NCBI GenBank assembly: GCA_003056085.1
Contig: LSNK01000001.1
Coordinates: 88,729-152,728, forward strand
Direction: 5' to 3'
From: Parcubacteria group bacterium M6-OD1-1
GTDB lineage: Bacteria; Patescibacteriota; Minisyncoccia; GWC2-36-17; M10-OD1-4
DNA: 64,000 bases
In this document: positions 7,801-64,000 of the stretch, in pieces
Numbering within the stretch: position 1 is the stretch's first letter
Layout of the letters: every line of letters begins with the position of its first letter
Program-made: the position numbers and the translations under genes
Notes under the pieces: generated by a model
Seen by the model: the letters and a program-made list of their open reading frames with translations, nothing else
Told to the model about the DNA's origin: nothing
The model's database searches: none

Positions 7801-8100
7801 CAGTTAGAAAAAGAGACGATAAAAATAGAAGACATAACCGACAACTTAGTTGGAAGAACCGTTAAAGTCGGGGGGATGGTCACCAATATTAAAAAGATAG
7901 TAACAAAAAATGGCGACCCAATGGCATTTGCCCAACTTGAAGACTTTTCTAAAAAAATAGAATTGGTTATCTTCCCAAAGACTCTTGAAAAAACAAAAGA
8001 TTTTTGGCAGGAAGACAAAGCAGCTTTTATATCTGGAAAATTAGATATGAGAAATGGAGAATATCAAATTTTATGCAGCACGGCAAAGGAAATAAAATAA
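4885..8100 (+). CDS. dnaE: DNA polymerase III alpha subunit
   Basis: PHP domain HLHVHSHYSLLDG, a pol III alpha core and a C-terminal OB fold, 1071 aa. Confidence 0.95.
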   Translation: MSEEKKFVHLHVHSHYSLLDGMPKIEELIKKTKELGMDSIALTDHGYMYGIIEFYKTAKKHGIKPILGVEVYVAPRKITDKETGIDDKRFHLVLLAKNNTGYKNLIKLITKANLEGFYYKPRVDKDLLKKYSKGLIALSACMSGEIPRAILTKNFEKAEKTIKEYKDIFGENFYLEISHRPNIKVSDTVNKKIIEYSEKFDVPLVATCDVHYIEKDDAKAQDTLMAVQTGAKLGEGDRITLAQDDFSLKSPEEIYETFPYPKEALKNTIKIAKSCNVDIELGVIQLPDYEVPKNRTTESYLKELCLGGIEKRYGKNSSDDVIKRLDYELSVINKTGYAEYFLIVSDFVNWAKENKIVVGPGRGSAAGSIVAYLLNITNIDPLKYDLLFERFLNPDRVSMPDIDLDFADTRRDEVLDYVVEKYGQERVAQIITFGTMAARAAIRDTGRALGISYDFCDKLAKLIEFGTSLQDSLNKIPELKEIYETNEEAKVLLDAAKKLEGVARHASTHACAVVIARNPLDEIVPLQYATKSQDDSGNAKKDERKQIVTQYEMHAIEDLGLLKMDFLGLKNLSIIERTLKIIKRRHKIEIDIDKIPLDDEKSFKLFQKAKTTGIFQFESSGMKRYLKELKPTELEDIIVMVALYRPGPLNSGMVDEFINRKHGKKEIIFKHPIMENSLKNTYGVIVYQEQVMQLSKDMAMFTGGQADTLRKAMGKKIASLMTKMKNEFIEGCIKNNLKVDLAKTTFLDMEKFAEYGFNRSHAACYGLVGYQTAYLKARFPAEFMASLMTADLRDIERIAFLVEEANTLGITILAPSVNESFRDFAVISDNEIRFGLVAIKGVGENIAKAIIEERETNGKFNSLEDFLIRVNHKDLNKKSVESLIKAGALDEFEDRNLLYGNAVKILEFVKNKSKKDVKTPQMGLFDDDPKIDMSALRLVAPEENISKKDMLAWEKELIGLYISGHPLGEHKEQLEKETIKIEDITDNLVGRTVKVGGMVTNIKKIVTKNGDPMAFAQLEDFSKKIELVIFPKTLEKTKDFWQEDKAAFISGKLDMRNGEYQILCSTAKEIK

Positions 8101-8102
8101 AA

Positions 8103-8138
8103 AATCTCTGACATTAAATGTCAGAGATTTTTTATTTT
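8103..8138. terminator. Bidirectional hairpin terminator between convergent dnaE and gatB
   Basis: aatctctgacatt-aaa-tgtcagagatt followed by a T-run. Confidence 0.6.
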
Positions 8139-8155
8139 GACTACCTTAAATTAAG

Positions 8156-9646
8156 CTACAAAAGAAGCTTCTCTAAAACTTCCTTTGTAACTGCTGGATT
8201 TGCTTTTCCTTTTGTTTTTGCCATAACTTGCCCCAATAAAAATTGTACTGAATTTAAATTTCCATTTTTGTAATCTAATACGGGTTTCGGATTCTTATCT
8301 ATCACCTCTTTTACAATCTTAGATATTTCTTCGGCATCATTTAATTGCAAAAGCCCTTTCTCTTCTATTATATGGTCAGGATCTGCGCCAGTTTCCACCA
8401 TTTGAGCCAAGACGGTTTTTGCAGCGGCTGAGGTAATCTTTTTTTCAAAAATTAACAACATCAACTCTGCAAGATCTTCTTCCGACATTTTCATATCGGA
8501 TATTTTTTTATTCGTTTCTCTTAATATCTTTTTTAAATCTGTGTTTATATAATTAATCGCAAGCTTAATAATTGCTTTTGTTTTTTCAGTATAAATATCT
8601 TCCTTTTTTTCTTTCAAAAGACCCTTTAGTTCCGAAACAACATTCTCAAAATAAAAAGTTGTTTCTTTATTGGTTATTAAAATATCAGCATCTTTTTCTA
8701 AAATTCCAAAAACTGTTTTAAACCTTCCAAGTTTTTGTTTTGGCAATTCCGGCAAAGAGGCTTTTAATGATTCGACATCAATTATATCTTTTGTTGGAAT
8801 TCCCTCTCTTTCACCAAGCTCCATTTGGGGTAAGTCCGGTTCCGGAAAATATCTGTAATCATGCGCACTTTCTTTCAGTCTTTGAGAGTATGTTATTTTT
8901 CTGTTTTCGTCCCAACCTCTTGTTTCTTGTATGACCTTCTCCCCCTTTTCCAAAAGAGCCTCTTGTCTTTTTTCTTCAAATTCTGCAGCATCTCTTACAG
9001 CTCGAAAAGAATTGAGATTTTTTATTTCAACTTTTGTTCCAAATTCTTTATTGTTTTTTTTCTTTAAACTTATATTAACCTCGCAACGCATTTGTCCTTT
9101 TTCCATATTGGCGTCAGAAACACCTAAATATTGAAATATTCTTTGGAGTTCTTCACAAAAAGACTTAGCCTCATCACCGGAAGTCATTTCCGGTTCCGTT
9201 ACGAGTTCCATCAAAGGAGCACTCGCCCTGTTAAAATCAACAAAACTGTAACCGGAAGCCCCATGAATAGACTTTGCGGTGTCTTCTTCCAAGTGAACTC
9301 TTGTTATGTTTATTTTTTTACCCAAAACTTCTAAATGCCCTCCTTCACAAATAGGCAAGTCATATTGGGATATCTGATATCCTTTCGGTATATCCGGATA
9401 AAAATAATTTTTTCTGTCAAACTTTGTATGTTTTGCAATCTTTGAACTCAAAGCATGACCAACCTTAACAACATACTCAACCGCTTTTTTATTTATGGTT
9501 GGAAGGGTTCCGGGATGCCCCAAACAAACCGGACAAATATTAATATTTGGACGGCTTTCCTCAGGGTCGTTTCTAGTACTGCAAAACATTTTTGTTTTGG
9601 TTTTTAGCTGCGCATGGACTTCAAGTCCTATTACTGTTTCATACAT
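8156..9646 (-). CDS. gatB: Asp/Glu-tRNA amidotransferase subunit B
   Basis: N-terminus MYETVIGLEVHAQLKTKTKMFC, a GatB/YqeY C-terminal domain, 496 aa. Confidence 0.9.
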   Translation of the reverse strand: MYETVIGLEVHAQLKTKTKMFCSTRNDPEESRPNINICPVCLGHPGTLPTINKKAVEYVVKVGHALSSKIAKHTKFDRKNYFYPDIPKGYQISQYDLPICEGGHLEVLGKKINITRVHLEEDTAKSIHGASGYSFVDFNRASAPLMELVTEPEMTSGDEAKSFCEELQRIFQYLGVSDANMEKGQMRCEVNISLKKKNNKEFGTKVEIKNLNSFRAVRDAAEFEEKRQEALLEKGEKVIQETRGWDENRKITYSQRLKESAHDYRYFPEPDLPQMELGEREGIPTKDIIDVESLKASLPELPKQKLGRFKTVFGILEKDADILITNKETTFYFENVVSELKGLLKEKKEDIYTEKTKAIIKLAINYINTDLKKILRETNKKISDMKMSEEDLAELMLLIFEKKITSAAAKTVLAQMVETGADPDHIIEEKGLLQLNDAEEISKIVKEVIDKNPKPVLDYKNGNLNSVQFLLGQVMAKTKGKANPAVTKEVLEKLLL

Positions 9647-41736: not shown

Positions 41737-42415
41737 AAACCGGCAACCCAAAATAAAACTCCTTGCTTTAAAAACAAGGAGTTTTATTTTAGACATATTT
41801 TTCCCTTCTTTTTGTGTTACTTGCAAGAAAGAAGGAGTTTTTTTGTGCAAAGACTGCAAAAAGAGAATAGATATATTTAAAACTCCATCTCACTTCCCCA
41901 AAAAATCAAAATTGGAAATTTTTTACTGCGCAACAAAATACAAACAAGACGAAATAGAAAAATTAATTTACAGCTTTAAATATCAATTTATAAAAGAAAT
42001 TAAAAATGAACTTTGTGAAATTTTAATGGAACATCTTAAAATATCCGGGTTCAAAAAAAACAGCAGCCAAGTTTTAATACCTGTGCCTCTCCACAAAAAA
42101 CGACTAAGATGGCGAGGCTTTAACCAGTCTGAAATTTTAGCAAAAGAAATTTCAGATCATTTTGATATACCAATGATAACAAATGTGCTTTTCAGAAAAA
42201 AATACACAGAACCGCAGACTTTAAAACAAGACAGAAAAGAGAGAATTAAAAATGTTAAAAATGCTTTTTTGTGTAAAAATATTGAAATTATAAAAGACAA
42301 AGAAATAATTTTAATTGATGATGTTTTAACAACAGGCGCCACTTTAAAAGAGTGTGCTAAAATCCTCTCAAAAAATAATATAAAAAAAATAATCGCCATA
42401 ACAATAGCAAAATGA
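41726..42415 (+). CDS. comF: ComF-family protein (phosphoribosyltransferase domain, N-terminal Zn finger)
   Basis: CVTCKKEGVFLCKDCKK Zn ribbon then PRTase motif ILIDDVLTTGATL. The true start probably lies downstream of the annotated overlap with clpC. Confidence 0.75.
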   Translation: MRTKNRQPKIKLLALKTRSFILDIFFPSFCVTCKKEGVFLCKDCKKRIDIFKTPSHFPKKSKLEIFYCATKYKQDEIEKLIYSFKYQFIKEIKNELCEILMEHLKISGFKKNSSQVLIPVPLHKKRLRWRGFNQSEILAKEISDHFDIPMITNVLFRKKYTEPQTLKQDRKERIKNVKNAFLCKNIEIIKDKEIILIDDVLTTGATLKECAKILSKNNIKKIIAITIAK

Positions 42416-42453
42416 CAACTTTGGGGACGACCGTCCCCAAAGTTGTCATTTTG
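42413..42453 (+). terminator. Rho-independent terminator after comF
   Basis: tgacaactttggggacg/accgtccccaaagttgtca then ttttg. Confidence 0.7.
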
Positions 42454-42553
42454 AAATTCTAAAAATTTCTGTATTATAAATACTCAAAGATATTGCAAAC
42501 CGGCAAAAAAAATGATAACTTACTATTTATCAAACAAAATTCCGTTATAAAAC

Positions 42554-42620
42554 GGAGAGGTGGCTGAGCAATCGCCCCGTAAAAAGGCAGCGGTCTTGTT
42601 CCCAATTTATTCAAATCTTT
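42554..42620 (+). pseudogene. 5' tRNA-Ser-like fragment (acceptor plus D-arm) with divergent tail
   Basis: GGAGAGGTGGCTGAGC... identical to the first 16 nt of the intact tRNA-Ser(TGA), then diverges (cgccccgtaaaaaggcagcggtcttg-ttcccaatttattcaaatc). Confidence 0.5.
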
Positions 42621-42678
42621 AATTTGGTGATAAATTGCAATCCCGAAATAGAATTTGTTTGCAATTTGATATTAGAGC

Positions 42679-42800
42679 GGAGAGGTGGCTGAGCGGTTGC
42701 TCCCTGTTTGTCCAAGAGCAGTAGCGATTGGCTAACAAACAGCAGTACAGCGAGGCGAAGCCGAGTCGTAAAGGCGATAGTCTTGCTCCCGATTTGTTCA
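42679..42800 (+). pseudogene. Disrupted tRNA-Ser-like copy carrying a 58-nt hairpin insertion in the D-loop
   Basis: GGAGAGGTGGCTGAGCGGT, then the insert 42698..42755 (tgctccctgtttgtccaagagcagtagcgattggctaacaaacagcagtacagcgagg), then CGAAG-ccgagtcgtaa-AGGCGATAGTCTTG-ctcccgatttgttcaaatc. No anticodon or T arm. Confidence 0.5.
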
Positions 42801-42823
42801 AATCATTAATAATTTATAAAGCG

Positions 42824-42909
42824 GAGAGGTGGCTGAGCGGTCGAAGGCGATAGTCTTGAAAACTATTGTACGTTCACGCGTACCGAGGGTTCGAATCCCT
42901 CCCTCTCCG
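42824..42909 (+). tRNA. tRNA-Ser (TGA), type II with long variable arm
   Basis: GGAGAGGTGGCTGAGCGGTCGAAGGCGATAGTCTTGAAAACTATTGTACGTTCACGCGTACCGAGGGTTCGAATCCCTCCCTCTCCG, anticodon loop CTTGAAA. Confidence 0.85.
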
Positions 42910-42956
42910 CTTTGTACGATATTATGATTTGATTACAAATCGCAGTGCTGTGCAAA

Positions 42957-43010
42957 AACTATTGTACGTTCACGCGTACCGAGGGTTCGAATCCCTCCCT
43001 CTCCGCTCTG
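42957..43010 (+). pseudogene. Direct repeat of the 3' half of tRNA-Ser(TGA) (anticodon-loop to 3' end), att-site-like
   Basis: aaaactattgtacgttcacgcgtaccgagggttcgaatccctccctctccgct is identical to 42856..42909. It generates the artefactual ORF 42866..43090. Confidence 0.6.
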
Positions 43011-43080
43011 GTATTAAATCAAATTTTATTCGGGAAAAACGTTGCTCCGCTTTGCAACGGAAAATTAATTTACCAAAAAA

Positions 43081-43153
43081 GCGCCCATAGCTCAGCTGGT
43101 AGAGCAGTCGCCTCTTAAGCGAACGGTCCCAGGTTCAAGTCCTGGTGGGCGCA
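43081..43153 (+). tRNA. tRNA-Lys (CTT)
   Basis: GCGCCCATAGCTCAGCTGGTAGAGCAGTCGCCTCTTAAGCGAACGGTCCCAGGTTCAAGTCCTGGTGGGCGCA, anticodon loop CTCTTAA, one mismatch in the anticodon stem. Confidence 0.8.
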
Positions 43154-43203
43154 CAAGAAAATCAAAATTATAAAATAAATTAGTTTACAATTTAATCTTA
43201 TAT

Positions 43204-43330
43204 GAAGAGGTGACTGAGTGGCTGCTCCCTGTTTGTCCAAGAGCAGTAGCGATTGGCTAACAAACAGCAGTACAGCGAGGGCTCCCATTTTATTCACGCT
43301 TGCGTGAGTACAAAATGCAGTGCTTTAGCC
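43204..43330 (+). pseudogene. Disrupted duplicate of tRNA-Ser(GCT) 5' part carrying the same 58-nt insertion
   Basis: GAAGAGGTGACTGAGTGG, then the insert 43223..43280 (identical to 42698..42755), then unrelated sequence. The upstream 25 nt (tagtttacaatttaatcttatatg) are duplicated from the intact gene's promoter region. Confidence 0.5.
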
Positions 43331-43399
43331 TTTAGCCCGAGTCGTAAAAGTGACATATATACTTTATAATAAAAGATAGTTTACAATTTAATCTTATAT

Positions 43400-43488
43400 G
43401 GAGAGGTGACTGAGTGGCTGAAAGTGACACCCTGCTAAGGTGTTGTACGGGTTAAACCGTACCGAGGGTTCGAATCCCTCCCTCTCCG
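43400..43488 (+). tRNA. tRNA-Ser (GCT), type II
   Basis: GGAGAGGTGACTGAGTGGCTGAAAGTGACACCCTGCTAAGGTGTTGTACGGGTTAAACCGTACCGAGGGTTCGAATCCCTCCCTCTCCG, anticodon loop CTGCTAA. Confidence 0.85.
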
Positions 43489-43501
43489 CAATAGTAAAAA
43501 G

Positions 43502-43531
43502 GAAGTGCTAATTTATTAGCGCTTCTTTTTT
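43502..43531 (+). terminator. Terminator after tRNA-Ser(GCT)
   Basis: gaagtgctaat-tt-attagcgcttc then tttttt. Confidence 0.55.
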
Positions 43532-44039
43532 ACTTCTGTGAAGTAGGGATTCGAAGAATCCTCCCTGTTTGTTCAAATTTTCACCTAAAAGGTACAGGTA
43601 ATTTAATAACAAAACGCAGTACCTTTAGTGTAAGCCATTCGTTTTTTTATTTTATGATGTCTATTGGATAAAATCCGAACTTATTTTAAACAGAACCCCG
43701 ACTAATCACGTGCCGAGCGCATGGTAACTCTAAACTTTCTCTTACGCTTCTATGAATTGGTAATTCTGTCGGTGTGTTTCCGTCCACCCCTGCTGTGTTG
43801 CGATGAACCAAAACAGAAATTTTTTCAATACATTTTTTTAATTTTTTTCTGTCCTCATCTTTTTCTTTTAATAGAATTTGTGAAGTGCCCTGCGGGTGAA
43901 AAAATTTTTCTGTTTGGGGTTTCCTCTTAACCAGAGAAAAGCGGAAACGTTCTAATCTGAATCGCAAGAAGAACAAAATTCCTTCCCCCATCACACCTAT
44001 GCGCGAGCAATATAAAGGAATTCCCTGAAATTTCAAAAG

Positions 44040-45581
44040 CTATTGACGTTCAAATACCTCTTTTAATTGAGCGCGAGTCTTTGGTCCGACCAAGCCGTAT
44101 CCGGTAGTTTTTTCATCTCCAAAAGAAACAATATCGTGTTTTTTTTGAAACCTTCTTACTGCGTCTTGAGTAAGTTGTCCAAAATATCTAGTCTCATTGC
44201 TCGCTGAGCCGGAGCCTTGATCGGCAAGTTTTGTATCAGGGTCTGAATTGAGCAACTGTTGCAATTCTTTTACATCGTCATTCTGCATTCCAAATCGAAG
44301 AGTTTTAATAAACACAGCCAAAATAGGTTGAGTCGGCGTTTCCAGCTGTTGAATAGAAGGGGTTTCCGTTGGTATTTCTGTGGGTTGTTGTAAAAAAGAA
44401 TTCACAAACGCTCTGGTTGACGGCCCGAAAAAACCAGTGCCTCTTTTTAATCCTATAGGAGCCAAAATTTTCGAGGCGTGCTTTTGCTGGTATATAATGA
44501 GTGCTTTTTTGGTTAAAGGCCCGAAGTATTTGGTTTCGTTGCCCGGAGAACCTGGGCCTTGATTCGCCAAAGGATGCAGTTGGTTTAAGAATTTTTGCAA
44601 AGTTTTGACATTTTCTCCTTTGTCGCCAAAACGCATATTGCGCTTAAAAAGCACTACTGTTGTAAAATGTTCCTGTGGAGGTAATTGAAAAATCTTTTTG
44701 GGAGCATAAATAACACTATCGGAGATAACTTTTGAATACCGTACATATTTGTTAGAAAATTTAACATAGAGTGTTTTTTCTCCATATTTTCCCGATAAGA
44801 TCCATGAGGTTGAAGTAGTGTAATTGATATATATAGCTGGAGAGAAGTTTAAATTATCCGCAATAGCAATTTTTTCAGCATCCGGTCCGCCTTCAAAATT
44901 AAGAATGACAGTAGCGTCATTAGTAATATCTGGAATTATGAAAAATTTAAATCCGTCATCTGGTTCAGTTAGAGGAGGCGGAGTCCAGCCACCACCACCT
45001 CCGCTAATAGGGTCAGTTTCGTCAGTGTCGCTAGCTGACGAGCAGCCGGGATCTGAAGGATAATCAATTAGACCATCGCCGTCATCATCAAGAGAATTAT
45101 TGCAAGCCGCCCGCGCGCTTTGAGGACGCCAATCTGTTTTGACTTTAAAATCAGATGAACCGCAAGAGCTGGCATTGGCGCAATTAAAACTAATTTGGCC
45201 TGTTACAGTGCTTGAAGCGTAGCCGCTGAAATATCCCGAGCTACCAATAGTAACACCGGAAAAATCTACCCAGCCGGTATTTTCTCCCCAAGCTGAGCCG
45301 GACAATATTCCTTCGCCGTTATTGTTAACGCCTGAACCGTCTGGATTAAGGTTGATCCAACCGTAATTGGCGCTCCATGTATATCCGGTCATGCCTGTAT
45401 CAGTAATGGCTACACTGCCGCCGGATACGCCAAAATTTATCCAACCGGCATTTTCCGACCAAGCGTATTTATATGTAGAGTCAATTGTGCCGTTGGTTTC
45501 AGAAGCGAAAGCAAAACTTGGCAATAATAGAATTATAGATGTTACTAAAATAAAAAATAATTTTACGTATTTTAATTTCAT
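44040..45581 (-). CDS. Secreted protein with W-S/G-E-N-x-G-W-I/V-x-F repeats and two C-terminal peptidoglycan-binding-like repeats
   Basis: Signal peptide. Repeats AWSENAGWINFG / TWSANYGWINLN / AWGENTGWVDFS. Acidic DDDGDGLIDYPSDPGCSSASDTDETDP segment. The helical bundle pattern ...GDKGENVKTLQKFLNQ...YFGPLTKKALIIYQQKH (PG_binding_1-like) occurs twice at the C-terminus. Confidence 0.6.
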   Translation of the reverse strand: MKLKYVKLFFILVTSIILLLPSFAFASETNGTIDSTYKYAWSENAGWINFGVSGGSVAITDTGMTGYTWSANYGWINLNPDGSGVNNNGEGILSGSAWGENTGWVDFSGVTIGSSGYFSGYASSTVTGQISFNCANASSCGSSDFKVKTDWRPQSARAACNNSLDDDGDGLIDYPSDPGCSSASDTDETDPISGGGGGWTPPPLTEPDDGFKFFIIPDITNDATVILNFEGGPDAEKIAIADNLNFSPAIYINYTTSTSWILSGKYGEKTLYVKFSNKYVRYSKVISDSVIYAPKKIFQLPPQEHFTTVVLFKRNMRFGDKGENVKTLQKFLNQLHPLANQGPGSPGNETKYFGPLTKKALIIYQQKHASKILAPIGLKRGTGFFGPSTRAFVNSFLQQPTEIPTETPSIQQLETPTQPILAVFIKTLRFGMQNDDVKELQQLLNSDPDTKLADQGSGSASNETRYFGQLTQDAVRRFQKKHDIVSFGDEKTTGYGLVGPKTRAQLKEVFERQ

Positions 45582-45916
45582 AAAATAATTTTACGAAGAA
45601 TTTTTATTTGCCAACCGACCTATTTTTACTTCCATTTCGCAAATAGACAATATTGACAACTTCCACCTTTTTATCACCGTCATATATATAAAGGAACTTT
45701 AACGCATTTTTTCGTAGCTGTTATTAGTGTTCTTATAGAATCAGACACGCCTTTTTGATAGACAGTTTTTAAATATCGCGTTTTAAATTTCTGCCATTGG
45801 TCGTGGGCAACATAACCAACGGAAAATACAGCTCAAACAACAACAATAAAAATTAAAATATTTTTTTAGTTATAATATTTTTTTCAGTCATACTGGTTAA
45901 ATAATTATTTTTCATA

Positions 45917-47887
45917 TTATTTATAATAATCTACCCATCCACCTAATAATGTATATCCAGTTCCAACATGAAGTATTAAATAATTACTAGCGGTTGATTT
46001 TACGACTCTAGCTCTATAAATATCGCTGTAAGAAACATCAGTAATGACTTCTTCTTCAGAATTAGCAATATTTAATACTTGTATAGCACTATTTATGATA
46101 CCTCCATTGGCGCCAATATTAAGAAAATTATATCCGTTAACCCAAGTAGAAGATATATACATCCGATAAACTGCACCATACCTACCACCTTGTTGGTCAG
46201 GACTGTAATATGCAATACCATCTGCAGGAACTACATAAGCACCATCCGAAACCCTCTTTAGTCTTCCAGCAAAGCCACCAGAGCTTATGCCATTTCCGTC
46301 AATTCTTGCTATCACAGCATTGTTTGCATAAATATCAAAAATTCCATCTGAAACCCAATTAAAGCCAGTATCACTATCTCCTATCGCTAAGTCAATAGAA
46401 GGAGAAGCGCTAGTCCCAATACCAACATTTCCAATTGAGGTTATTCTTACTCGCTCAACATTATTCGTATAAAATTCAATTTGTCCGTCAGCCGTACTAA
46501 ACATACCTCCGTCTGTATCACCTGGGGAAGTAAAAGAGTATCCACCACCGTTGGAAGGGGTAGCTCCTTTGGCTCTTATTTGCCCGTTTACTTCTAGCTT
46601 TACATTTGGGGCGCTGTTTCCAATGCCGACATTACCAGTGTCTAAAATAGTAAATATATTAGTGCGAGTATAAGATCCGTCATCAGCATTTACTCTTAAC
46701 CCTACATCTGTTTTTTGCCATTCAGCCCAAGTGGATGTTGCAGAATTTTCTTTTAAATAAATTGCGGCCGCTAAACTGCCAGTAACCATAATTTTGGTAT
46801 CACCACCACTTACTTCTAAAAGCTGAGCAGGAGCGTTAGTCCCAATACCAACTTTTGCATTTAAAATATTTACTTCATCAGTTGTTTGGTCGTCAAATTC
46901 AATTCTTCCGGCAGCTGCGCCCAAACCGAGCCAATCACCTGTTGCTGTTGAATCAGCAAAAGCTGCGCCTGTTGTCATAGACCCTACTTTGGTAATATCT
47001 CCAGATCCTACGCTCGTCCATGCAGGATTGGCACCTGCCCCAAGAGTTTTTAGAAGTTGTCCTGATGTTCCCGGAGATAGATTTACCCAATTAGTTCCAT
47101 TAAAATATATAATGTCTCCTTGACTGGCTGTAATACCAGCAATGTCTGTAAGGTAGGCGTTACCGGCTTGCTTAGCATTCCAAGTAGAGGCCGAAGAAAT
47201 ATATGAATCGCCAATAGCGGTGCCATTCCATACGCCCGTTGCAATTGTACCTAATGTGGTAATATTTGATGTTCCCGCCCAAATTGATAAGGCAGTATTT
47301 TCTACATTGCCAAGACTAAGATTAGTTCTAGCCGCTGCGTAGTTAGCAGAACCAAGCAATGTCTGGATATTTGCGGAAGGCGTAATTCCAGCGTAAGTAG
47401 TTAAGTCAGCGTCATATGCTTGAACATTTGTTCCAATAACCAAACCCAAGTTAGTTCTGGCGGTAGAAGTACTGGCTAAATCTGAAAGATTGTTAGTTGA
47501 AAGAAGATCTCCTCCTCCACTACTAATAGTGCCCCACGCAGGATTAACGCCTGCTCCAAGAGTTTTTAGAAATTGCCCTGACGTCCCTGGAGCTATATTT
47601 ACCCAATTAGTTCCATTAAAATATATAATATCTCCTTGACTGGCTGTAATGCTTGAAATATCTGTGAGATAATCATTTCCATTCTGTGGAGTATTTACTG
47701 TACAGTTAGTGTCTCCTGGAGCGCAAGTTGGAGATAGAGTCTCTCCAAGATTATATGACGATCCTGGTGGAGCAGCCAAGGCAGTGTAAATAAAGGTTGA
47801 GAAAGCAATGATAAAAACACCAAGCAAAAACTTACTGCTTGTTTGCAGGACATTTATAACAGTGAGTAATTTGTGTAAATTTCTCAT
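45917..47887 (-). CDS. Large secreted tail-fibre-like repeat protein
   Basis: Signal/TM N-terminus. A 57-aa unit YLTDI(S/A)(S/G)ITASQGDIIYFNGTNWVN(I/L)(A/S)PGTSGQ(F/L)LKTLGAG(V/A)NPAW is duplicated. Ser/Gly/Thr-rich beta-type sequence, 656 aa. Confidence 0.6.
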   Translation of the reverse strand: MRNLHKLLTVINVLQTSSKFLLGVFIIAFSTFIYTALAAPPGSSYNLGETLSPTCAPGDTNCTVNTPQNGNDYLTDISSITASQGDIIYFNGTNWVNIAPGTSGQFLKTLGAGVNPAWGTISSGGGDLLSTNNLSDLASTSTARTNLGLVIGTNVQAYDADLTTYAGITPSANIQTLLGSANYAAARTNLSLGNVENTALSIWAGTSNITTLGTIATGVWNGTAIGDSYISSASTWNAKQAGNAYLTDIAGITASQGDIIYFNGTNWVNLSPGTSGQLLKTLGAGANPAWTSVGSGDITKVGSMTTGAAFADSTATGDWLGLGAAAGRIEFDDQTTDEVNILNAKVGIGTNAPAQLLEVSGGDTKIMVTGSLAAAIYLKENSATSTWAEWQKTDVGLRVNADDGSYTRTNIFTILDTGNVGIGNSAPNVKLEVNGQIRAKGATPSNGGGYSFTSPGDTDGGMFSTADGQIEFYTNNVERVRITSIGNVGIGTSASPSIDLAIGDSDTGFNWVSDGIFDIYANNAVIARIDGNGISSGGFAGRLKRVSDGAYVVPADGIAYYSPDQQGGRYGAVYRMYISSTWVNGYNFLNIGANGGIINSAIQVLNIANSEEEVITDVSYSDIYRARVVKSTASNYLILHVGTGYTLLGGWVDYYK

Positions 47888-48104: not shown

Positions 48105-48332
48105 ATGTTAGTATTATATTTTAAAGTTATGTCAAGTAATCAAAACTTATCAAAAAATATAAAACGATTAAGGAAAACCAAAGGGCTCTCACAAGAAAAA
48201 TTGGCGAGACTGGCCGATGTCGCCAATAATACCCTTATTAAAATGGAAACAGGGGAAAATAAAAATCCAACACTTAAAACCTTAAAAAAGGTTGCAAACG
48301 CCTTTGGGGTTAGTGTTGATGATTTAATTTAA
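48105..48332 (+). CDS. XRE-family HTH transcriptional regulator
   Basis: LSQEKLARLADVANNTLIKMETGEN is an HTH_3 motif, 75 aa. Confidence 0.8.
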   Translation: MLVLYFKVMSSNQNLSKNIKRLRKTKGLSQEKLARLADVANNTLIKMETGENKNPTLKTLKKVANAFGVSVDDLI

Positions 48333-48355
48333 TTAACTAATTTTATTTAAAAATT

Positions 48356-49357
48356 ATGGAAAATACATCAAAAAAACACATTGTTCTAAAAATTTTATTA
48401 GCATTATTGCCTGCTTTAATCTTTACACAAAATTACGCTTGGATGACGCTTAATTCGTTTACAGGAGTAGCTTTTTTGATTATTTGGGCGTTAATGATTT
48501 GGAGTGTTTGGCAATTCACAGAAAAGAACTATATTATTGAAAGATTTTTTCGCCTAACGGAAATATCTTTCTTTTTACTTCCTTTGTCAGCTATCATTTT
48601 TGCATTTGTTCTTGGCTCTCAAGTAGTTACCTCTACATCAAACGAAATTGAGCAAGCTGGAGCTGCTTTAGGTACGGCAATAGGTGGAACTTTTGCAGTT
48701 ATCTTAGCTTTTATTATTGGGCTTATAGGGGGTATCATCATGCACTTAATAACCAGCAAATATGATAAAAAAGCAGAGGCGTCTGAAGTAAAACAATCAG
48801 AATCTTTATCGAACAAACACGGCGTTATCCTTTCACTCGTTGCCGTGATTACTCTTGCTATTATCATAGGTTCTATTTCAAGTGCTCAACAATCCGCACA
48901 AATTACTAAAGAAAAGGAAGAATTAAGTAATAGCTTACAACAGAGCGGAATAAATCAAACTGATACAACGGAAACAGAACAAATAAAAACAGAAAACAAA
49001 AAAGTCACGATAGAAATTATGAGTAAAAATTTTCATGAGGCAGATTATATGTCAGGCGATTATCAGGATCAAATCACAATGGATTTGAAATTTACCAACA
49101 CTACCGATAAAGAAATAAGAGGAGTTGAGGGCGTGCTTACTTTTTACGATATTTTTGATAATAAAATATCCGCGACAAAAGTAAGTTACGACAAAGGAAT
49201 CCCCGCAAACGAAAGCAAAGTTTGGAAATCTGGAACAAACTATAATCAATTTATGGATGAGGATATAAAGTTGAGAAACACTGAACTAAAAGACTTGAAG
49301 TACAAATGGGAAGTTTCAACGATTATTTACACCGATGGCAGTAAAGAAACATTATAA
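48356..49357 (+). CDS. Membrane protein with C-terminal extracytoplasmic beta-rich domain, partner of the XRE regulator
   Basis: Several N-terminal TM helices, a Gln/Ser linker and a C-terminal about 130-aa domain. Adjacent to the HTH gene, 24-nt gap. Confidence 0.6.
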   Translation: MENTSKKHIVLKILLALLPALIFTQNYAWMTLNSFTGVAFLIIWALMIWSVWQFTEKNYIIERFFRLTEISFFLLPLSAIIFAFVLGSQVVTSTSNEIEQAGAALGTAIGGTFAVILAFIIGLIGGIIMHLITSKYDKKAEASEVKQSESLSNKHGVILSLVAVITLAIIIGSISSAQQSAQITKEKEELSNSLQQSGINQTDTTETEQIKTENKKVTIEIMSKNFHEADYMSGDYQDQITMDLKFTNTTDKEIRGVEGVLTFYDIFDNKISATKVSYDKGIPANESKVWKSGTNYNQFMDEDIKLRNTELKDLKYKWEVSTIIYTDGSKETL

Positions 49358-60140: not shown

Positions 60141-60216
60141 ATAATGTAATATTCATCCAATGATAAATCCGACTACGGTCGGGTTTTGATATTAAAAGAC
60201 CAAAAAACTTAAAAAT

Positions 60217-60288
60217 GGCCTCATCGTCTAACGGTTAGGACACCAGCTTTTCAAGCTGGCGATCGGGGTTCGATTCCCCGTGGGGCTA
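60217..60288 (+). tRNA. tRNA-Glu (TTC)
   Basis: GGCCTCATCGTCTAACGGTTAGGACACCAGCTTTTCAAGCTGGCGATCGGGGTTCGATTCCCCGTGGGGCTA, anticodon loop TTTTCAA. Confidence 0.85.
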
Positions 60289-60298
60289 CAATTAAAAC

Positions 60299-60340
60299 AA
60301 AAACCTCCTTACTCACGAAGGGGGTTTTTGTTTTGGTTCG
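60299..60340 (+). terminator. Terminator after tRNA-Glu
   Basis: aaacctcctt-actcacg-aagggggttt then ttgttttgg. Confidence 0.55.
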
Positions 60341-60414
60341 TATTTTCTGAATAACTCAACGGGTTGAGGTATTCAATTTACTCCGTTATTCTCTATTAAG
60401 TGGTATAGCATACT

Positions 60415-60445
60415 ATCCAAATTTTGGATATTGATTTTTTGGATA
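60415..60445 (+). promoter_or_regulatory. Candidate operator for the XRE regulator: 15-bp palindrome plus a repeated half-site
   Basis: atccaaattttggat (perfect palindrome, 60415..60429), then ttgattttttggata (TTTGGATA again), 15-30 nt upstream of the XRE start codon. Confidence 0.5.
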
Positions 60446-60459
60446 GACAATGATAGCAT

Positions 60460-60681
60460 ATGAACAAATCAATCCATACAAAAGAATACGCCAAATTTGT
60501 AGAAAAATTAAAGCAAGCTCGTATTGAAGCTGACTTTACACAAGTACAAGTTGCCAAAAAACTAAAACGTCCCCAATCACATGTTTCAAATATTGAAACA
60601 GGACAACAAAGAGTTGATGTCATTGAATTGAAAAGATTCGCAAAATTGTACAAAAAAAATATTAATTATTTTATTAAATAA
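60460..60681 (+). CDS. XRE-family HTH transcriptional regulator
   Basis: FTQVQVAKKLKRPQSHVSNIETGQQRVDV is an HTH_3 motif, 73 aa. The stop abuts the next gene. Confidence 0.8.
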   Translation: MNKSIHTKEYAKFVEKLKQARIEADFTQVQVAKKLKRPQSHVSNIETGQQRVDVIELKRFAKLYKKNINYFIK

Positions 60682-60683
60682 AT

Positions 60684-61283
60684 ATGGGATTTTTTAATTT
60701 TTCAAAATACAACAATGCAGAAAAAGAACTCCTAGATTTATATAGCACCGAGTTCGAAAACATAGGAATTCCAGAACCATCTAAAATGGCGGGAAATTTG
60801 TTAGATGAAGCAATCAAAGAATCTAAAAAAATTAATCTTCCCGTTAATGCTGGAGATTCACTTTTAGATAAAGAAAAAAATAATGAAAGCACCCACAATC
60901 TTTTAGAAAAAAAGAGACGGGAGGGTGTGCGTGATGAAGATATTAGATGGTGGTGGAATTCGAGCGACCTAGAACGAATGATGATGTTAAAAGTTGATGA
61001 GTTTCACCGATTAGCTTTACATATAAAATGTCGGGAAGATGGTTTGTCGGCTGAACAGTCAGCTAATCAAGTTAGAAAATTTCATCCTATTTATGGAAAC
61101 CCAGAAGAAACAACTCATACTGATGGGGATGATGGACCACTACCCGAAGAACTAAAAAATAGAATTAATATTTATATAGAAAGAAAACCACAAACAGACC
61201 CTGAAAAATATAAAGATGAAATTGAACAATCAACTACATTTAATGCTTTAATACGAAAAGAACTTAAAAAGAATAACCTTTAA
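60684..61283 (+). CDS. Hypothetical protein (island gene 1)
   Basis: 199 aa, no recognisable motif. Co-oriented with the XRE gene, 2-nt spacer. Confidence 0.5.
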   Translation: MGFFNFSKYNNAEKELLDLYSTEFENIGIPEPSKMAGNLLDEAIKESKKINLPVNAGDSLLDKEKNNESTHNLLEKKRREGVRDEDIRWWWNSSDLERMMMLKVDEFHRLALHIKCREDGLSAEQSANQVRKFHPIYGNPEETTHTDGDDGPLPEELKNRINIYIERKPQTDPEKYKDEIEQSTTFNALIRKELKKNNL

Positions 61284-61321
61284 AAAAATTATCTACGATA
61301 AAATTAAAATATGGAAATGAT

Positions 61322-61546
61322 ATGCATATAGAATATTATAAAAAATTTAGAATAAATATACATAAACCTGAGCCAAGAGATAATAATTGGTTAATAGAGT
61401 GGGATTTAATGATTTCTGTTAAAAATGGTTGGGATCCTTATTCTGATGATAAATTTATTGAAGAAATACCAAATTCATATCCAGAAGATAATTGTCTTAC
61501 TATTGTTTTAAATAGAGTTAAGAAATATATAGATAAAAATTTATAA
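61322..61546 (+). CDS. Hypothetical small protein (island gene 2)
   Basis: 74 aa. Confidence 0.4.
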   Translation: MHIEYYKKFRINIHKPEPRDNNWLIEWDLMISVKNGWDPYSDDKFIEEIPNSYPEDNCLTIVLNRVKKYIDKNL

Positions 61547-61549
61547 AAT

Positions 61550-61981
61550 ATGTATTTAAAATGTAACATATGCGGTAAAAATAGTGTATTTATTTTTCCA
61601 TGGCTTGCTGGGGATAATAATTGTAATAAATGCTCTAAACAGTTTGAGTATAGAAGAAAAAATGGCTTGTGTTTAATGTGTGGTAGTTCTGAGAAAGTAT
61701 TTTTCTCTGGAAAATGTGATAAGTGTCACAAGCTGCAACAACCTAACGAATTTAAGCCAGAAAAAAATATTGGAAAAGATGTGAAAGTGCTTAATAAGCT
61801 TAAAAATAAACCAGCTTCTCATTCACTTATTTTTTGGCTTATTGGATTTTTTGTAATTGTTATTTTCTACAAACCAATTTTCTTTATTATTCAATACCTT
61901 CTTTGGTTTTTTCTAGTAATTCTATCTGAATTAATATGTTTAATCTCCTTAGGAAATCTACTATGCAAATACACAATATAA
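61550..61981 (+). CDS. Double zinc-ribbon protein with C-terminal TM helices (island gene 3)
   Basis: CNICGK...CNKCSK and CLMCGS...CDKCH, then two hydrophobic helices. Confidence 0.5.
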   Translation: MYLKCNICGKNSVFIFPWLAGDNNCNKCSKQFEYRRKNGLCLMCGSSEKVFFSGKCDKCHKLQQPNEFKPEKNIGKDVKVLNKLKNKPASHSLIFWLIGFFVIVIFYKPIFFIIQYLLWFFLVILSELICLISLGNLLCKYTI

Positions 61982-62005
61982 CCAATATTAAATCACATAA
62001 AGAAT

Positions 62006-62539
62006 ATGATTTATCTTGTAGGTGTAGATCATAGAATTCAACATGATGGGATTGAATCAGCTAATCTAAATCAAAGAAAAAAATTTATTGATTATTTAGT
62101 TTCTACTTTTAAAGAGCTTAATATATCTATTGTAGCTGAAGAATTTAATGAAGACTCTCTTGAATATTCTTATGCAAAAAATAGCACAGCTAAACTTGCA
62201 GTACAAAAAAATGATATAAAACATATTTACTGTGATCCCAACATCAAAGAACGAAAAGAAATAAAAATTCCTTCTGAGGACAAAATATGTAAAGATTTAG
62301 GAATTAAATTCATTAGGAATAATAGTGAAGATGAGGCTCGGATTATACAAGAAAAAAGAAAATACTACATTATACGAGAAAATTTTTGGCTTGATAAATT
62401 ATCTGATTCTTTACATAAAGAAATATTAATTATCATCGGAACAGATCATATAAAAAGTTTTAAGAAATTACTTAATTCAAAAAATATTCCTTGCACCATT
62501 CTAAATAACAATTGGTGTTTTGAAAATTTGTTAACATAA
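62006..62539 (+). CDS. Hypothetical protein (island gene 4), convergent with the RT gene
   Basis: 177 aa, N-terminus MIYLVGVDHRIQ, a later ILIIIGTDH. No confident family assignment. Confidence 0.5.
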   Translation: MIYLVGVDHRIQHDGIESANLNQRKKFIDYLVSTFKELNISIVAEEFNEDSLEYSYAKNSTAKLAVQKNDIKHIYCDPNIKERKEIKIPSEDKICKDLGIKFIRNNSEDEARIIQEKRKYYIIRENFWLDKLSDSLHKEILIIIGTDHIKSFKKLLNSKNIPCTILNNNWCFENLLT

Positions 62540-62563
62540 CACAATAACTTGTGTTATGTTAAC
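62530..62563. terminator. Perfect 15-bp stem hairpin shared by the convergent 62006 and RT genes
   Basis: gttaacataacacaa-taac-ttgtgttatgttaac then ttttctc. Overlaps both stop codons. Confidence 0.6.
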
Positions 62564-63515
62564 TTTTCTCCACATATTTTTTATACTTCATTAGAGCTAT
62601 ACGCTTTTTTTTAGCACCTCTTATTTCAATTGGGGATAAACCTTTTTTTAATTGATTTTTGATTTTATCTATCTTCGATCTAGTCTTTTTACCAACTGAC
62701 ACCTTATTTCTATACATAATTAACCCCAAATGCTCAATTCCTTCCTCATGAGAGCATATAAATTTCTTTTCTTGATTTAAAGGTAAGTCATTACTTAATA
62801 ACAACTCTTCTATTTCCTCAGAGATAACTTTCATATCCTCTTTGGAAACCCTGCTTACTGTTATTCCTATATCATCAACGTAAATAGCAAGTCGCGAATC
62901 TTTTCCTTTTAAGCGTTTTTTTACTAATCTATCTATTCTTATAAAAACATCTAAATTACACCAAACAGCCAATCTTGATGAAGTGGCAAATCCACGAGCT
63001 ATAGTTTTTTTGGAAGATCCATTTCCTTTTGGACCAATTGGAACACAGCATACATCAGAAAGAATTTTAGAAGCTCTATAATCACAACCGCACTCACTCT
63101 TAAAAAAATGATAAACTTTTTCTTTTGTTACATTTTCAAAAAAAGTTTTTATATCTAACTTTAATATTGTCCTTTTTCTTTTTTCACCGAGTAAATGTTC
63201 CGCAGCTTTTTTATGATTTAATCCACCAATACCACCAAAAATAAAGTGGGGTAACATTTTGTCATGAGGAGCAAGAATACTTTTATTTATTTTATCTAAT
63301 AGTTTGCCTAGATTAGTACTTTTTGCATTGCGTACATATTTATTTTTATCAGGCTTTGAGTGTTTTTTATTATCTTTCCAATATTGGTCAAAATTACTTA
63401 TTACACCATTTATTAAATTTAAAGATTCTTCTTTGGAAAAATATTTATTACTCAAATGCTTTGCTAATTCATTTTTACTCCTAATAAAAAGTTTTGGATA
63501 TCTTCTATTTTGCAT
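62559..63515 (-). CDS. Compact reverse transcriptase (retron-like or defense-associated RT)
   Basis: RT motifs in order: PHFIFGGIGGLNHKKAAEHL (motif 1, nAkkH-like), ILKLDIKTFFENV (motif 2), VPIGPKGNGSS...FATSSRLAVWCNL (motifs 3/4), IYVDDIGI (motif 5, catalytic YxDD), LPLNQEKKFIC (motif 6), HLGLIMY (motif 7). 318 aa with no fused extra domain. Confidence 0.75.
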   Translation of the reverse strand: MQNRRYPKLFIRSKNELAKHLSNKYFSKEESLNLINGVISNFDQYWKDNKKHSKPDKNKYVRNAKSTNLGKLLDKINKSILAPHDKMLPHFIFGGIGGLNHKKAAEHLLGEKRKRTILKLDIKTFFENVTKEKVYHFFKSECGCDYRASKILSDVCCVPIGPKGNGSSKKTIARGFATSSRLAVWCNLDVFIRIDRLVKKRLKGKDSRLAIYVDDIGITVSRVSKEDMKVISEEIEELLLSNDLPLNQEKKFICSHEEGIEHLGLIMYRNKVSVGKKTRSKIDKIKNQLKKGLSPIEIRGAKKKRIALMKYKKYVEKS

Positions 63516-63828
63516 ATTTCTTTAAAAACTTTGCTTTATCTTGTATTAGATAATTTTGCATTTTTTCACCAAATTCTATAAATTTTCTTTCTATTGTAGA
63601 ACTTTTATCTATTTGTTTTTCATTACCAAAAAGAAATGGAGTGATAGACGAAGGATGAACATTTAAAATTTTAGATAACTTTAAAAGAAATTTCTTAGAC
63701 ACTTCTTTTTGACCAGTTTCTATCATAGCAATAAGAACAGTAGACACATCTAATGCCTTGGCAAATTCAGACTGGGTAAGTCCAGCTTCATCTCTTATTT
63801 TTCTTATTAGATTTGGAAAAGAATACAT
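63505..63828 (-). CDS. XRE-family HTH protein translationally coupled to the RT
   Basis: LTQSEFAKALDVSTVLIAMIETGQKEVSKKFLLKLSKILNV is an HTH_3 motif, 107 aa. Its 3' end overlaps the RT start by 11 nt. Confidence 0.75.
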   Translation of the reverse strand: MYSFPNLIRKIRDEAGLTQSEFAKALDVSTVLIAMIETGQKEVSKKFLLKLSKILNVHPSSITPFLFGNEKQIDKSSTIERKFIEFGEKMQNYLIQDKAKFLKKYAK

Positions 63829-63837
63829 ATAAGAAGA

Positions 63838-63984
63838 CTATAGGGCGACTACCTCAAAAAATCTATGAGTATACGAATAATTTTTAAAATCATCCATAAA
63901 AATCTTAGAATTTTCATTTTCAGTAACCGCCCTATGATACGGGAGACACAATTCATATACAAAAACTAAAGTATTTTTATTCAT
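63838..63984 (-). CDS. Very small ORF upstream of the HTH-RT pair (possibly non-coding)
   Basis: 48 codons (MNKNTLVFVYELCLPYHRAVTENENSKIFMDDFKNYSYTHRFFEVVAL). The same DNA contains inverted repeats, so it may instead be a structured RNA. Confidence 0.25.
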   Translation of the reverse strand: MNKNTLVFVYELCLPYHRAVTENENSKIFMDDFKNYSYTHRFFEVVAL

Positions 63985-64000
63985 AAAGTTATTTCTTTCC

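Follow-up and report, generated by a model that had tools for sequence, protein, structure and literature searches.

A variable, defense-type region 3' of a tRNA-Glu gene in a Patescibacteria genome, with a predicted Type VI retron and an XRE-p199 operon meeting at a common terminator

Type VI retrons, as delineated by Mestre et al. (2020), combine a clade-3 reverse transcriptase (RT) with a Cro/C1-type helix-turn-helix (HTH) protein of 91–110 amino acids (aa) and, often, a small accessory protein (SP), the named clusters of which comprise proteins of 75–79 aa; a Type VI retron of Ca. Levybacteria was already part of that set. The published order of elements is non-coding RNA (ncRNA)-SP-HTH-RT. 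In Retron-Vpa2 (Zhang et al. 2025, bioRxiv 10.1101/2025.10.22.683967) and Retron-Sen3 (Garcia-Rodriguez et al. 2026, bioRxiv 10.64898/2026.04.27.721009), SP is a toxin that is neutralized by the HTH protein, which also binds the RT. A long structured RNA encloses the SP coding sequence and is described as the hyRNA of Retron-Vpa2 (10.1101/2025.10.22.683967) and as long-range ncRNA-SP pairing in the Sen3 lineage (10.64898/2026.04.27.721009). Here we analyze a stretch of 64,000 nucleotides, referred to below as the window, from the genome of Parcubacteria group bacterium M6-OD1-1 (contig LSNK01000001.1), in which the segment 3' of a tRNA-Glu gene encodes an HTH-RT pair facing an operon of five small genes headed by a Cro/C1-type (XRE) regulator. 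Patescibacteria are regarded as host-dependent; their genomes are very small, and they are usually portrayed as having few defense systems.

We read this segment as a variable, defense-type region in which two independent modules, a retron and an XRE-p199 operon with cargo, appear to meet at a common bidirectional terminator; on the comparative evidence, we assign this reading a probability of roughly 0.7. The retron comprises the following features:

62530–62563, no strand assigned: bidirectional terminator hairpin with a 15-bp stem, from the terminator scan, common to the convergent XRE operon and retron
62559–63515, minus strand: predicted Type VI retron reverse transcriptase, 318 aa, with YVDD (PADLOC RT_VI; Pfam RVT_1, 2.7e-13)
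63505–63828, minus strand: predicted Type VI retron HTH protein, 107 aa (PADLOC HTH_VI, 4.7e-14; HTH_3, 2e-14), overlapping the RT gene by 11 nt
63838–63984, minus strand: SP, a small open reading frame (ORF) of 48 aa directly upstream of the HTH gene, a candidate toxic effector and the 3' part of the hybrid RNA
63985–64000, minus strand: beginning of the non-coding portion of the retron's hybrid RNA, the remainder of which lies past the window and was read from contig L001

L001 is a 5,999-bp NCBI metagenome contig that is identical to window positions 60189–64000 and extends 2.2 kb further; according to this contig, the RT module runs approximately 390 nt past the window end. Among the 47 RT models of PADLOC, the best match of the RT is RT_VI (1.2e-29, 101.5 bits), followed by RT_IV (2.9e-23, 80.7 bits). 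The catalytic YVDD occupies residues 212–215, of which V213, D214 and D215 do not vary among 31 homologs and Y212 hardly does, and the RT clade includes 396 homologs with E ≤ 1e-20, the source names of which belong nearly all to Patescibacteria lineages. Four other retron contexts were read (L005, L024/L025, L026 and L027, with RTs 54–64% identical; L024 and L025 are the same place). The HTH protein, with its 107 aa, lies within the size range given by Mestre et al. (2020) and is 59–69% identical in L005, L026 and L027. The 48-aa SP ORF (63838–63984, minus strand) had been overlooked in the initial annotation of this DNA; each of the five retron loci has an ORF of this type, 46–48 aa long and ending 6–10 nt before the HTH start, with the motif ELCLPYxRA...(V/I)A(L/I)*.

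Approximately 560 nt upstream of the HTH gene can be aligned across the five retron loci, with a conserved promoter that includes a TATAC...GTATA palindrome, followed by several conserved blocks. With L001 coordinates expressed as window equivalents, the promoter (TTGCCA-17-TATACT) is located at about 64358–64386, terminators upstream of it at about 64478–64537, and the hybrid RNA, of about 510 nt, reaches about 64350. RNAalifold folds this RNA into three hairpins in the non-coding part, one long hairpin inside the SP coding sequence, and a long-range helix that joins the 5' end of the RNA (CAATTCA) to SP codons 10–12 (TGAATTG; window 63949–63955). Both the SP-coding hairpin and the long-range helix covary. 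In the alignment of the five sequences (A6), compensatory changes occur in 33 of 85 pairs, compared with 4–10 in controls, and paired cells amount to 87.5%, compared with 37–45% when the partners are slid by 1–3 columns; none of 500 shuffles reaches the observed values. The single-sequence fold of the hybrid RNA has z = −5.27, and the RNA region has no match to a retron or any other family in Rfam.

Given that the parts of a Type VI system are all found, and that the Ca. Levybacteria Type VI retron has already been published, we consider this retron an addition to a known kind. With high confidence, the HTH-RT module can be predicted to be a complete Type VI retron, distinguished by its shorter SP and by its host from the Candidate Phyla Radiation (CPR). 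The resemblance to the Type VI systems of Mestre et al. (2020), Retron-Vpa2 and Retron-Sen3 extends to the RT_VI and HTH_VI matches, the HTH gene upstream of and overlapping the RT gene, the small ORF directly upstream of the HTH gene and the intact YxDD; judged by the described architecture, it further includes a long structured RNA that precedes and engulfs the SP coding sequence, with a helix from the 5' end of the RNA into SP. Unlike those systems, the retron of the window has a patescibacterial host and an SP of 46–48 rather than 75–79 aa that, as far as compared, has no detectable similarity to the named SP clusters. A sigma-70-type promoter would drive the module on the minus strand (62559 to about 64390), yielding the hybrid RNA of about 510 nt with SP, then the HTH protein and the RT. 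By analogy with Retron-Vpa2 and Retron-Sen3, SP would act as the toxic effector, held in check by the HTH protein and the RNA fold; the RT would bind the hybrid RNA and copy part of it into single-stranded DNA (ssDNA); and when a phage interferes with host recombination or with RecBCD functions, SP would be set free and the infection aborted.

The other module, together with the tRNA gene, consists of the following features:

60217–60289, plus strand: tRNA-Glu (anticodon TTC; ARAGORN; Rfam tRNA, 64.3 bits), the left landmark of the variable segment
60291–60337, plus strand: strong intrinsic terminator hairpin after the tRNA, with a 20-bp stem and a T run (terminator scan; inverted repeat I1)
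60413–60446, plus strand: candidate XRE operator, a palindrome with a third half-site, ending 14 nt upstream of the XRE73 start codon (I8, I11, D1)
60460–60681, plus strand: XRE73, a Cro/C1-type HTH regulator of 73 aa (Pfam HTH_3, 5.1e-10; PHROG transcriptional repressor families), gene 1 of 5 in the operon
60684–61283, plus strand: p199, 199 aa, of an orphan family, with its start codon 2 nt after the XRE73 stop
61322–61546, plus strand: p74, a small orphan ORF of 74 aa, low-GC cargo
61550–61981, plus strand: p143, 143 aa, with a double zinc-ribbon N-terminal part and a hydrophobic C-terminal part
62006–62539, plus strand: p177, 177 aa, a putative TIKI/EreA/ChaN-superfamily hydrolase

The ORF list, Pfam and ARAGORN bore out all of the features named in the initial annotation, that is, tRNA-Glu, the XRE gene, the ORFs of 199, 74, 143 and 177 aa and the convergent HTH-RT pair. 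The independence of the two modules is evident from comparison with other loci. Homology among the five retron loci begins at the promoter, and the flanking genes on both sides differ from locus to locus, as follows:

L005: a 123-aa ORF and tRNA-Asp; patches of foreign DNA (58% GC) lie upstream
L024: ComF-like and methyltransferase genes, and tRNA-Ser
L026: small membrane ORFs
L027: Abi_C and a type I restriction-modification (R-M) system

None of XRE73, p199, p74, p143 and p177 is encoded in these four contexts (L005, L024/L025, L026, L027), and reciprocally, the p199 loci outside the window (L010, L017/L021, L022/L023 and L016) contain no RT. It is, accordingly, most improbable that the proteins of the XRE operon are accessory effectors of the retron, the two forming one functional system. 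The modules are adjacent and convergent and have one terminator in common, and XRE73 weakly matches HTH_VI (1.9e-08), as would be expected under such an arrangement; however, none of the five genes accompanies the other retrons, RNA, SP, HTH and RT suffice for the Type VI systems published so far, and the HTH_VI match appears to be a generic HTH match because XRE73 also matches capH and RmrA.

Two of the retron contexts have features of their own. Immediately upstream of the L005 retron, in a contig of about 33% GC, positions 7060–7330 and 8160–8940 are patches of 48–59% GC, one of them with a 239-aa ORF, and are clearly foreign DNA. Downstream of the L026 retron and convergent with it (7107–8679, minus strand) are paralogous Gly-rich membrane ORFs of 78, 134 and 157 aa with 32–47% mutual identity.

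The five co-directional ORFs XRE73, p199, p74, p143 and p177 are separated by intergenic gaps of 2–38 nt, and in the terminator scan the only terminators around them follow tRNA-Glu and p177. The module (about 60340–62563, plus strand) would thus be a single operon in which XRE73 is autorepressed, p199 is its conserved partner, and p74, p143 and p177 are low-GC cargo added downstream of XRE-p199. The terminator at 60291–60337 is predicted to insulate tRNA-Glu from the operon, and the order tRNA, hairpin, XRE is also present in L017. The palindrome that the initial annotation had placed before the XRE gene is indeed found there, as TATCCAAA-T-TTTGGATA at 60414–60430, and is accompanied by a third half-site, TTTGGATAG, at 60438–60446. 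In L017, an XRE protein gene with 52% identity is preceded, at the same relative position, by the palindrome TATACCAAACTGGTATA, which is related to the window's TATCCAAATTTTGGATA. Because of this related palindrome in the same place, we infer binding of XRE73 to the TATCCAAA/TTTGGATA operator and, through it, probable autorepression.

A small Cro/C1 HTH gene in first position, a palindromic operator at its own promoter and a tightly coupled next gene are also found in XRE- or C-protein-controlled operons and in XRE-type toxin-antitoxin pairs. XRE73 and p199 could, by this resemblance, be a type II toxin-antitoxin or abortive-infection pair, with XRE73 the antitoxin and p199 the toxin, that stabilizes the region or defends the cell. 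The XRE gene lies immediately upstream with a 2-nt gap that makes translational coupling probable, the operator permits autoregulation, p199 recurs as a pair with two different XRE types, and the pair sits at the edge of variable, defense-rich regions. All the same we regard this explanation as unlikely. Unlike the proteins of such systems, p199 belongs to no known toxin, restriction or defense family and has no PADLOC match; its conservation (47–73% identity among the homologs listed) is unusually high for a toxin family; and in two clusters its domain forms part of a fusion with a GT2 glycosyltransferase. The toxin role is weakened further by the occurrence of p199 without an adjacent XRE in L022/L023, and in L017 other genes lie between XRE and p199.

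A second XRE-led module is present elsewhere in the window (48105–49357, plus strand), where a 75-aa XRE protein ('LARLADVANNTLIKME...'), nearly of the same type as the one preceding p199 in L010, is followed by a 333-aa multi-pass membrane protein.

The p199 family is large. A word-indexed search returned 320 homologs, with 47–73% identity among the 120 listed, and an exhaustive search 894 clusters at 50% identity; the source-named members are from Patescibacteria or unclassified bacteria. Scanning of all 63 aligned members gave no Pfam, PADLOC, PHROG or NCBIfam family match. The AlphaFold2 (AF2) model of p199 is all-alpha, with ten helices and a pLDDT of 93.2. Foldseek found nothing significantly similar to this model in PDB (best E 2.1) or BFVD (best E 1.6), and the family profile does not match any PDB sequence. 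Five independent contexts of the family were read:

Window: tRNA-Glu, XRE73, p199
L010: tRNA-Leu, an XRE of a different type, p199
L017/L021: tRNA-Asn, an XRE 52% identical to XRE73, an ORF of 138 aa, p199
L022/L023: tRNA-His, p199, without XRE
L016: tRNA-Lys, other cassettes, then p199, 4.4 kb downstream of the tRNA

In all five, p199 is co-directional with the tRNA, and in four it is located just 3' of it (Glu, Leu, Asn, His); by a rough estimate, some 5% of positions would fall within 1.2 kb downstream of a tRNA. The genes behind p199 are different in each locus, and include NYN, RhuM/Fic, LexA-methylase/Vsr and DUF6804; they vary even among strains with a DNA-identical p199 block, L010 and L011 diverging after 2.9 kb and L017 and L019 diverging as well. 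Such varied genes behind a recurrent XRE and p199 suggest that these two form the conserved, tRNA-proximal head of a variable region. Within the operon of the window, only XRE and p199 appear to recur as a pair. We propose that XRE-p199, resident or recurrent, constitutes a module that flanks tRNA genes in Patescibacteria and behind which accessory genes accumulate; our best guess for p199 is a regulated accessory, defense or envelope-related function, not one in recombination.

The locus L016 bears on the age of this arrangement. There, an ortholog of the window's glycosyltransferase (54% identity) adjoins tRNA-Glu, a 72.5%-identical p199 is encoded about 5.8 kb downstream, and unrelated genes and a tRNA-Lys lie in between. 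The position of p199 downstream of tRNA-Glu in both loci suggests that the XRE-p199 pair may have been present for long rather than inserted recently, and is a hint that it has long occupied this locus in the lineage. Furthermore, two clusters consist of GT2 glycosyltransferases that end in a C-terminal p199 domain, with the same linker length. Possible, if still somewhat unlikely, is an explanation by which XRE-p199 is an ordinary, vertically inherited chromosomal pair, perhaps related to the envelope or to glycosylation, with only the genes behind it being accessory. The size and strong conservation of the family, a GC content near the genomic value, the L016 arrangement, the GT2-p199 fusions and the glycosylation genes upstream in the window and in L022 all fit this explanation; the different flanking tRNA in each lineage (Glu, Leu, Asn, His) is unlike simple vertical synteny, and in L016 unrelated genes and tRNA-Lys separate tRNA-Glu from p199. 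The p199 domain also occurs once behind a methyltransferase domain, which may be a gene-calling fusion across a tRNA (compare the layout of L022). The proteins with these domain combinations, GT2 and methyltransferase taken together, are P0319 (761 aa), P0310 (487 aa) and P0367 (377 aa).

A bolder proposal starts from the same tRNA association. p199 would be the hallmark of an undescribed, integrase-less module that settles immediately 3' of the genes for several tRNAs (Glu, Leu, Asn, His), nucleating variable accessory and defense arrays in minimal genomes, p199 itself being either a new targeting or recombination factor or a regulated effector; we consider this quite unlikely. A cassette array with truncated XRE genes at the tRNA-Lys of L016 would, under that proposal, be another trace of the module. 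Within L016 3552–8010, three copies of the L010-type XRE (3666–3758, about 5540–5628 and 7898–7990) are truncated N-terminally, all at one breakpoint. The first starts 12 nt after the 3' end of tRNA-Lys, and each heads a different cargo, that of the third being the p199 homolog. The series looks like a cassette array or the outcome of repeated recombination at one site within the XRE gene.

XRE-led modules in a CPR population of Hainich groundwater are flanked by GC-rich, internally palindromic intergenic elements resembling repetitive extragenic palindromes (REP-like; L010 1574–1653 and 4306–4345; L011 2854–2933, 3129–3204 and 4416–4493), and the strain contexts diverge exactly inside one of them. 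Long inverted repeats around the L010 block, considered as terminal inverted repeats of a transposon, were rejected as such, being copies of this element.

The three genes between p199 and the common terminator recur in none of the other p199 or retron loci read, and are best described as predicted locus-specific, low-GC cargo. p74 has no match in the family libraries and no homolog in any of the fetched loci, to which the homology search was confined. p143, which the initial annotation had correctly taken for a double-Zn-ribbon membrane protein, has four CxxC motifs (at residues 5, 25, 41 and 56) and a hydrophobic C-terminal stretch, residues 87–141, with a Kyte-Doolittle score above 1.6 and a length sufficient for two membrane helices; homology was searched in the family libraries, the fetched loci and the phage records, and the 50,697 phage records contained no match. 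p177 has only five detected homologs, at 32–43% identity. The earlier statement that these proteins and p199 lack any recognizable catalytic motif does not hold for p177: in the alignment of six sequences (A2), G6xxH9, E45/E46, H73, D77, R83, E125 and G145xxH148 are invariant, giving two GxxH motifs together with invariant Glu and His residues.

The AF2 model of p177 (pLDDT 91.2) has a five-stranded alpha/beta core, and geometrically its best match in Foldseek is the effector HopBA1 (5t09; prob 0.96, TM 0.49, root-mean-square deviation (rmsd) 4.7 Å, E 0.03). HopBA1 is a TIKI superfamily protein, and active members of the superfamily use a 2His/2Glu set (PMC6254334). In its alpha/beta five-strand core, its two GxxH motifs and its invariant Glu and His, which resemble that set, p177 is similar to the TIKI/TraB/EreA/ChaN/HopBA1/RRSP superfamily, and HopBA1 is one of its two best structural matches; unlike most members, it is far smaller (177 aa), has no sequence-profile match and gives a borderline structural score. 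The definition of the TIKI superfamily by a GxxH pair and a conserved Glu is said to go back to Sanchez-Pulido and Ponting in 2013. Because the motif pattern fits, though no sequence profile confirms it, we regard p177 as probably a TIKI/EreA/ChaN-like hydrolase, on the strength of the model. Of the remote-homology and structure comparisons that the initial annotation had proposed for these proteins, the one for p177 thus led to a borderline match with HopBA1 and the one for p199 to no fold match. A homolog of p177, P0003, is encoded between a TIR protein and R-M/DndB genes. A constant partnership of p177 with TIR proteins was considered and rejected; it is true in L007–L009 and not in L028.

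The initial annotation had interpreted the whole block as a defense or mobile island at the 3' end of the tRNA. The change in gene content after tRNA-Glu is accompanied by a change in composition: GC falls to 0.251 over 61284–62539, the p74–p177 stretch, and is 0.281 over the retron genes and 0.313 over XRE and p199, compared with a mean of 0.339 ± 0.033 in 1-kb windows of the remaining sequence, just 1.7% of which are below 0.28; the tetranucleotide distance of the segment gives z of about 2.1–2.3. The composition is atypical for p74–p177 and the retron genes, and it is not for XRE and p199. Beyond the SP ORF, L001 continues with about 840 nt without a long ORF, an alpha/beta hydrolase gene and the 3' end of another gene. 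Over the 5.9 kb that separate the tRNA from the L001 end (60290 to about 66188), neither an integrase nor a repeat of 11 nt or more of the tRNA-Glu 3' end is present, and L010, L016, L017 and L022 likewise contain no tRNA 3'-end repeats or recombinases. Relatives for a presence/absence comparison are distant only: L002, with a PHP protein match at 50% identity and no synteny, and L016, with partial synteny; look-ups of exact proteins led only to short contigs with the identical sequence. The defense character of the region is upheld by the Type VI retron, the atypical composition and the variable, often defense-rich and often tRNA-flanking neighborhoods of the relatives; the idea of one mobile unit is not, the region consisting of two modules with neither an integrase nor a tRNA 3'-end repeat in the 5.9 kb available.

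Tycheposon-type islands in streamlined genomes were reportedly described by Hackl et al. Like these and the tRNA-linked genomic islands with an integrase and att duplication, the segment has accessory and defense genes immediately 3' of a tRNA, strain-variable content and atypical composition; unlike in them, an integrase, a recombinase and a partial tRNA repeat are all lacking from the five loci examined, and the tRNA-proximal XRE-p199 would here be the conserved and not the mobile part. It is distinctly unlikely that a single integrase-mediated island was inserted in the 3' end of tRNA-Glu, carrying both the XRE operon and the retron as cargo, with the integrase and attR farther on. Consistent with such an island are the composition and the position directly 3' of the tRNA, the tRNA 3' ends found 0.7–2.3 kb from related retrons in L005 (Asp) and L024 (Ser), the accessory and defense genes adjoining the relatives, and the breaks of two other assemblies at tRNA-Glu. 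Against it stand the lack of an integrase, a recombinase or a tRNA 3'-end repeat in the 5.9 kb as well as in the four other p199 loci, the fact that the two modules are never together in the other loci read, the near-genomic GC (0.313) of XRE and p199, and the presence of p199 downstream of tRNA-Glu in the partly syntenic L016.

As to the assembly breaks, two independent assemblies of identical sequence end at this point, the Logan contig L003 at 60289 and L001 at 60189, and the segment that they have in common is tRNA-Glu plus 28 nt upstream. These breaks are to be expected since related genomes in the sample have the same tRNA sequence, and as evidence for an island they were given no weight.

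An XRE repressor with its operator, small orphan ORFs and a tRNA-adjacent position are also what a prophage or phage-satellite remnant might leave behind. Such an origin is highly improbable: IMG/VR contains no relative of p199, of p177 or of the RT clade; p199, p143 and p177 have no match in the 50,697 phage records (tblastn); the only PHROG matches are those of HTH and RT proteins; and structural, replication or integrase genes are absent from the block. A plasmid origin was also considered and rejected, the RT having no match in plasmids (tblastn).

Several points weigh against our reading of the region as two independent modules, one of them a Type VI retron, in a variable defense-type setting. 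The association of p199 with tRNA genes is based on only five independent contexts. The SP ORFs, at 46–48 aa, are shorter than the proteins of 75–79 aa in the clusters named by Mestre et al. (2020), and the Ca. Levybacteria Type VI retron, the sole CPR representative tested, did not yield detectable ssDNA in E. coli. What is said of SP toxicity, ssDNA synthesis and the trigger comes from systems of proteobacteria and would apply here by analogy. The fold match of p177 is borderline (E 0.03, TM 0.49), and the phosphoglycerate-mutase (histidine-phosphatase) fold scored E 0.018 with an rmsd of 9.4 Å; p177 has no sequence-profile match to TraB, Erythro_esterase or ChaN (Pfam, E ≤ 0.1), and no PDB sequence match. 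Finally, the right-hand border of the region lies past the available sequence, and an integrase may be encoded further on.

The Type VI architecture of hybrid RNA, small toxin, HTH protein and RT appears to be common in Patescibacteria, given hundreds of RT homologs that are nearly all Patescibacteria-named, and the short SP (46–48 aa), together with the clear RNA covariation, offers a compact natural variant for mechanistic comparison. The potentially novel element is the orphan p199 family with its tRNA-flanking habit, as seen in the five contexts: a large, uncharacterized family, predicted to be well folded, whose members are strikingly linked in position to tRNA genes and to variable regions. 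Should this link hold in a wider set, it would suggest a lineage-specific way of organizing accessory DNA.

Two minor observations concern the surroundings. The alpha/beta-hydrolase gene beyond the window end is flanked by direct repeats of about 100 nt, 76–87% identical and with small hairpins (L001 172–259 and 437–486 versus 1426–1443 and 1505–1603; window-equivalent about 64585–66016), and the repeat motif has no copy anywhere in the 64-kb window. The strongest tetranucleotide outlier of the window is the stretch 42000–47000, where a tRNA-Ser/Lys/Ser cluster is followed by two large secreted or surface proteins of 513 and 656 aa.

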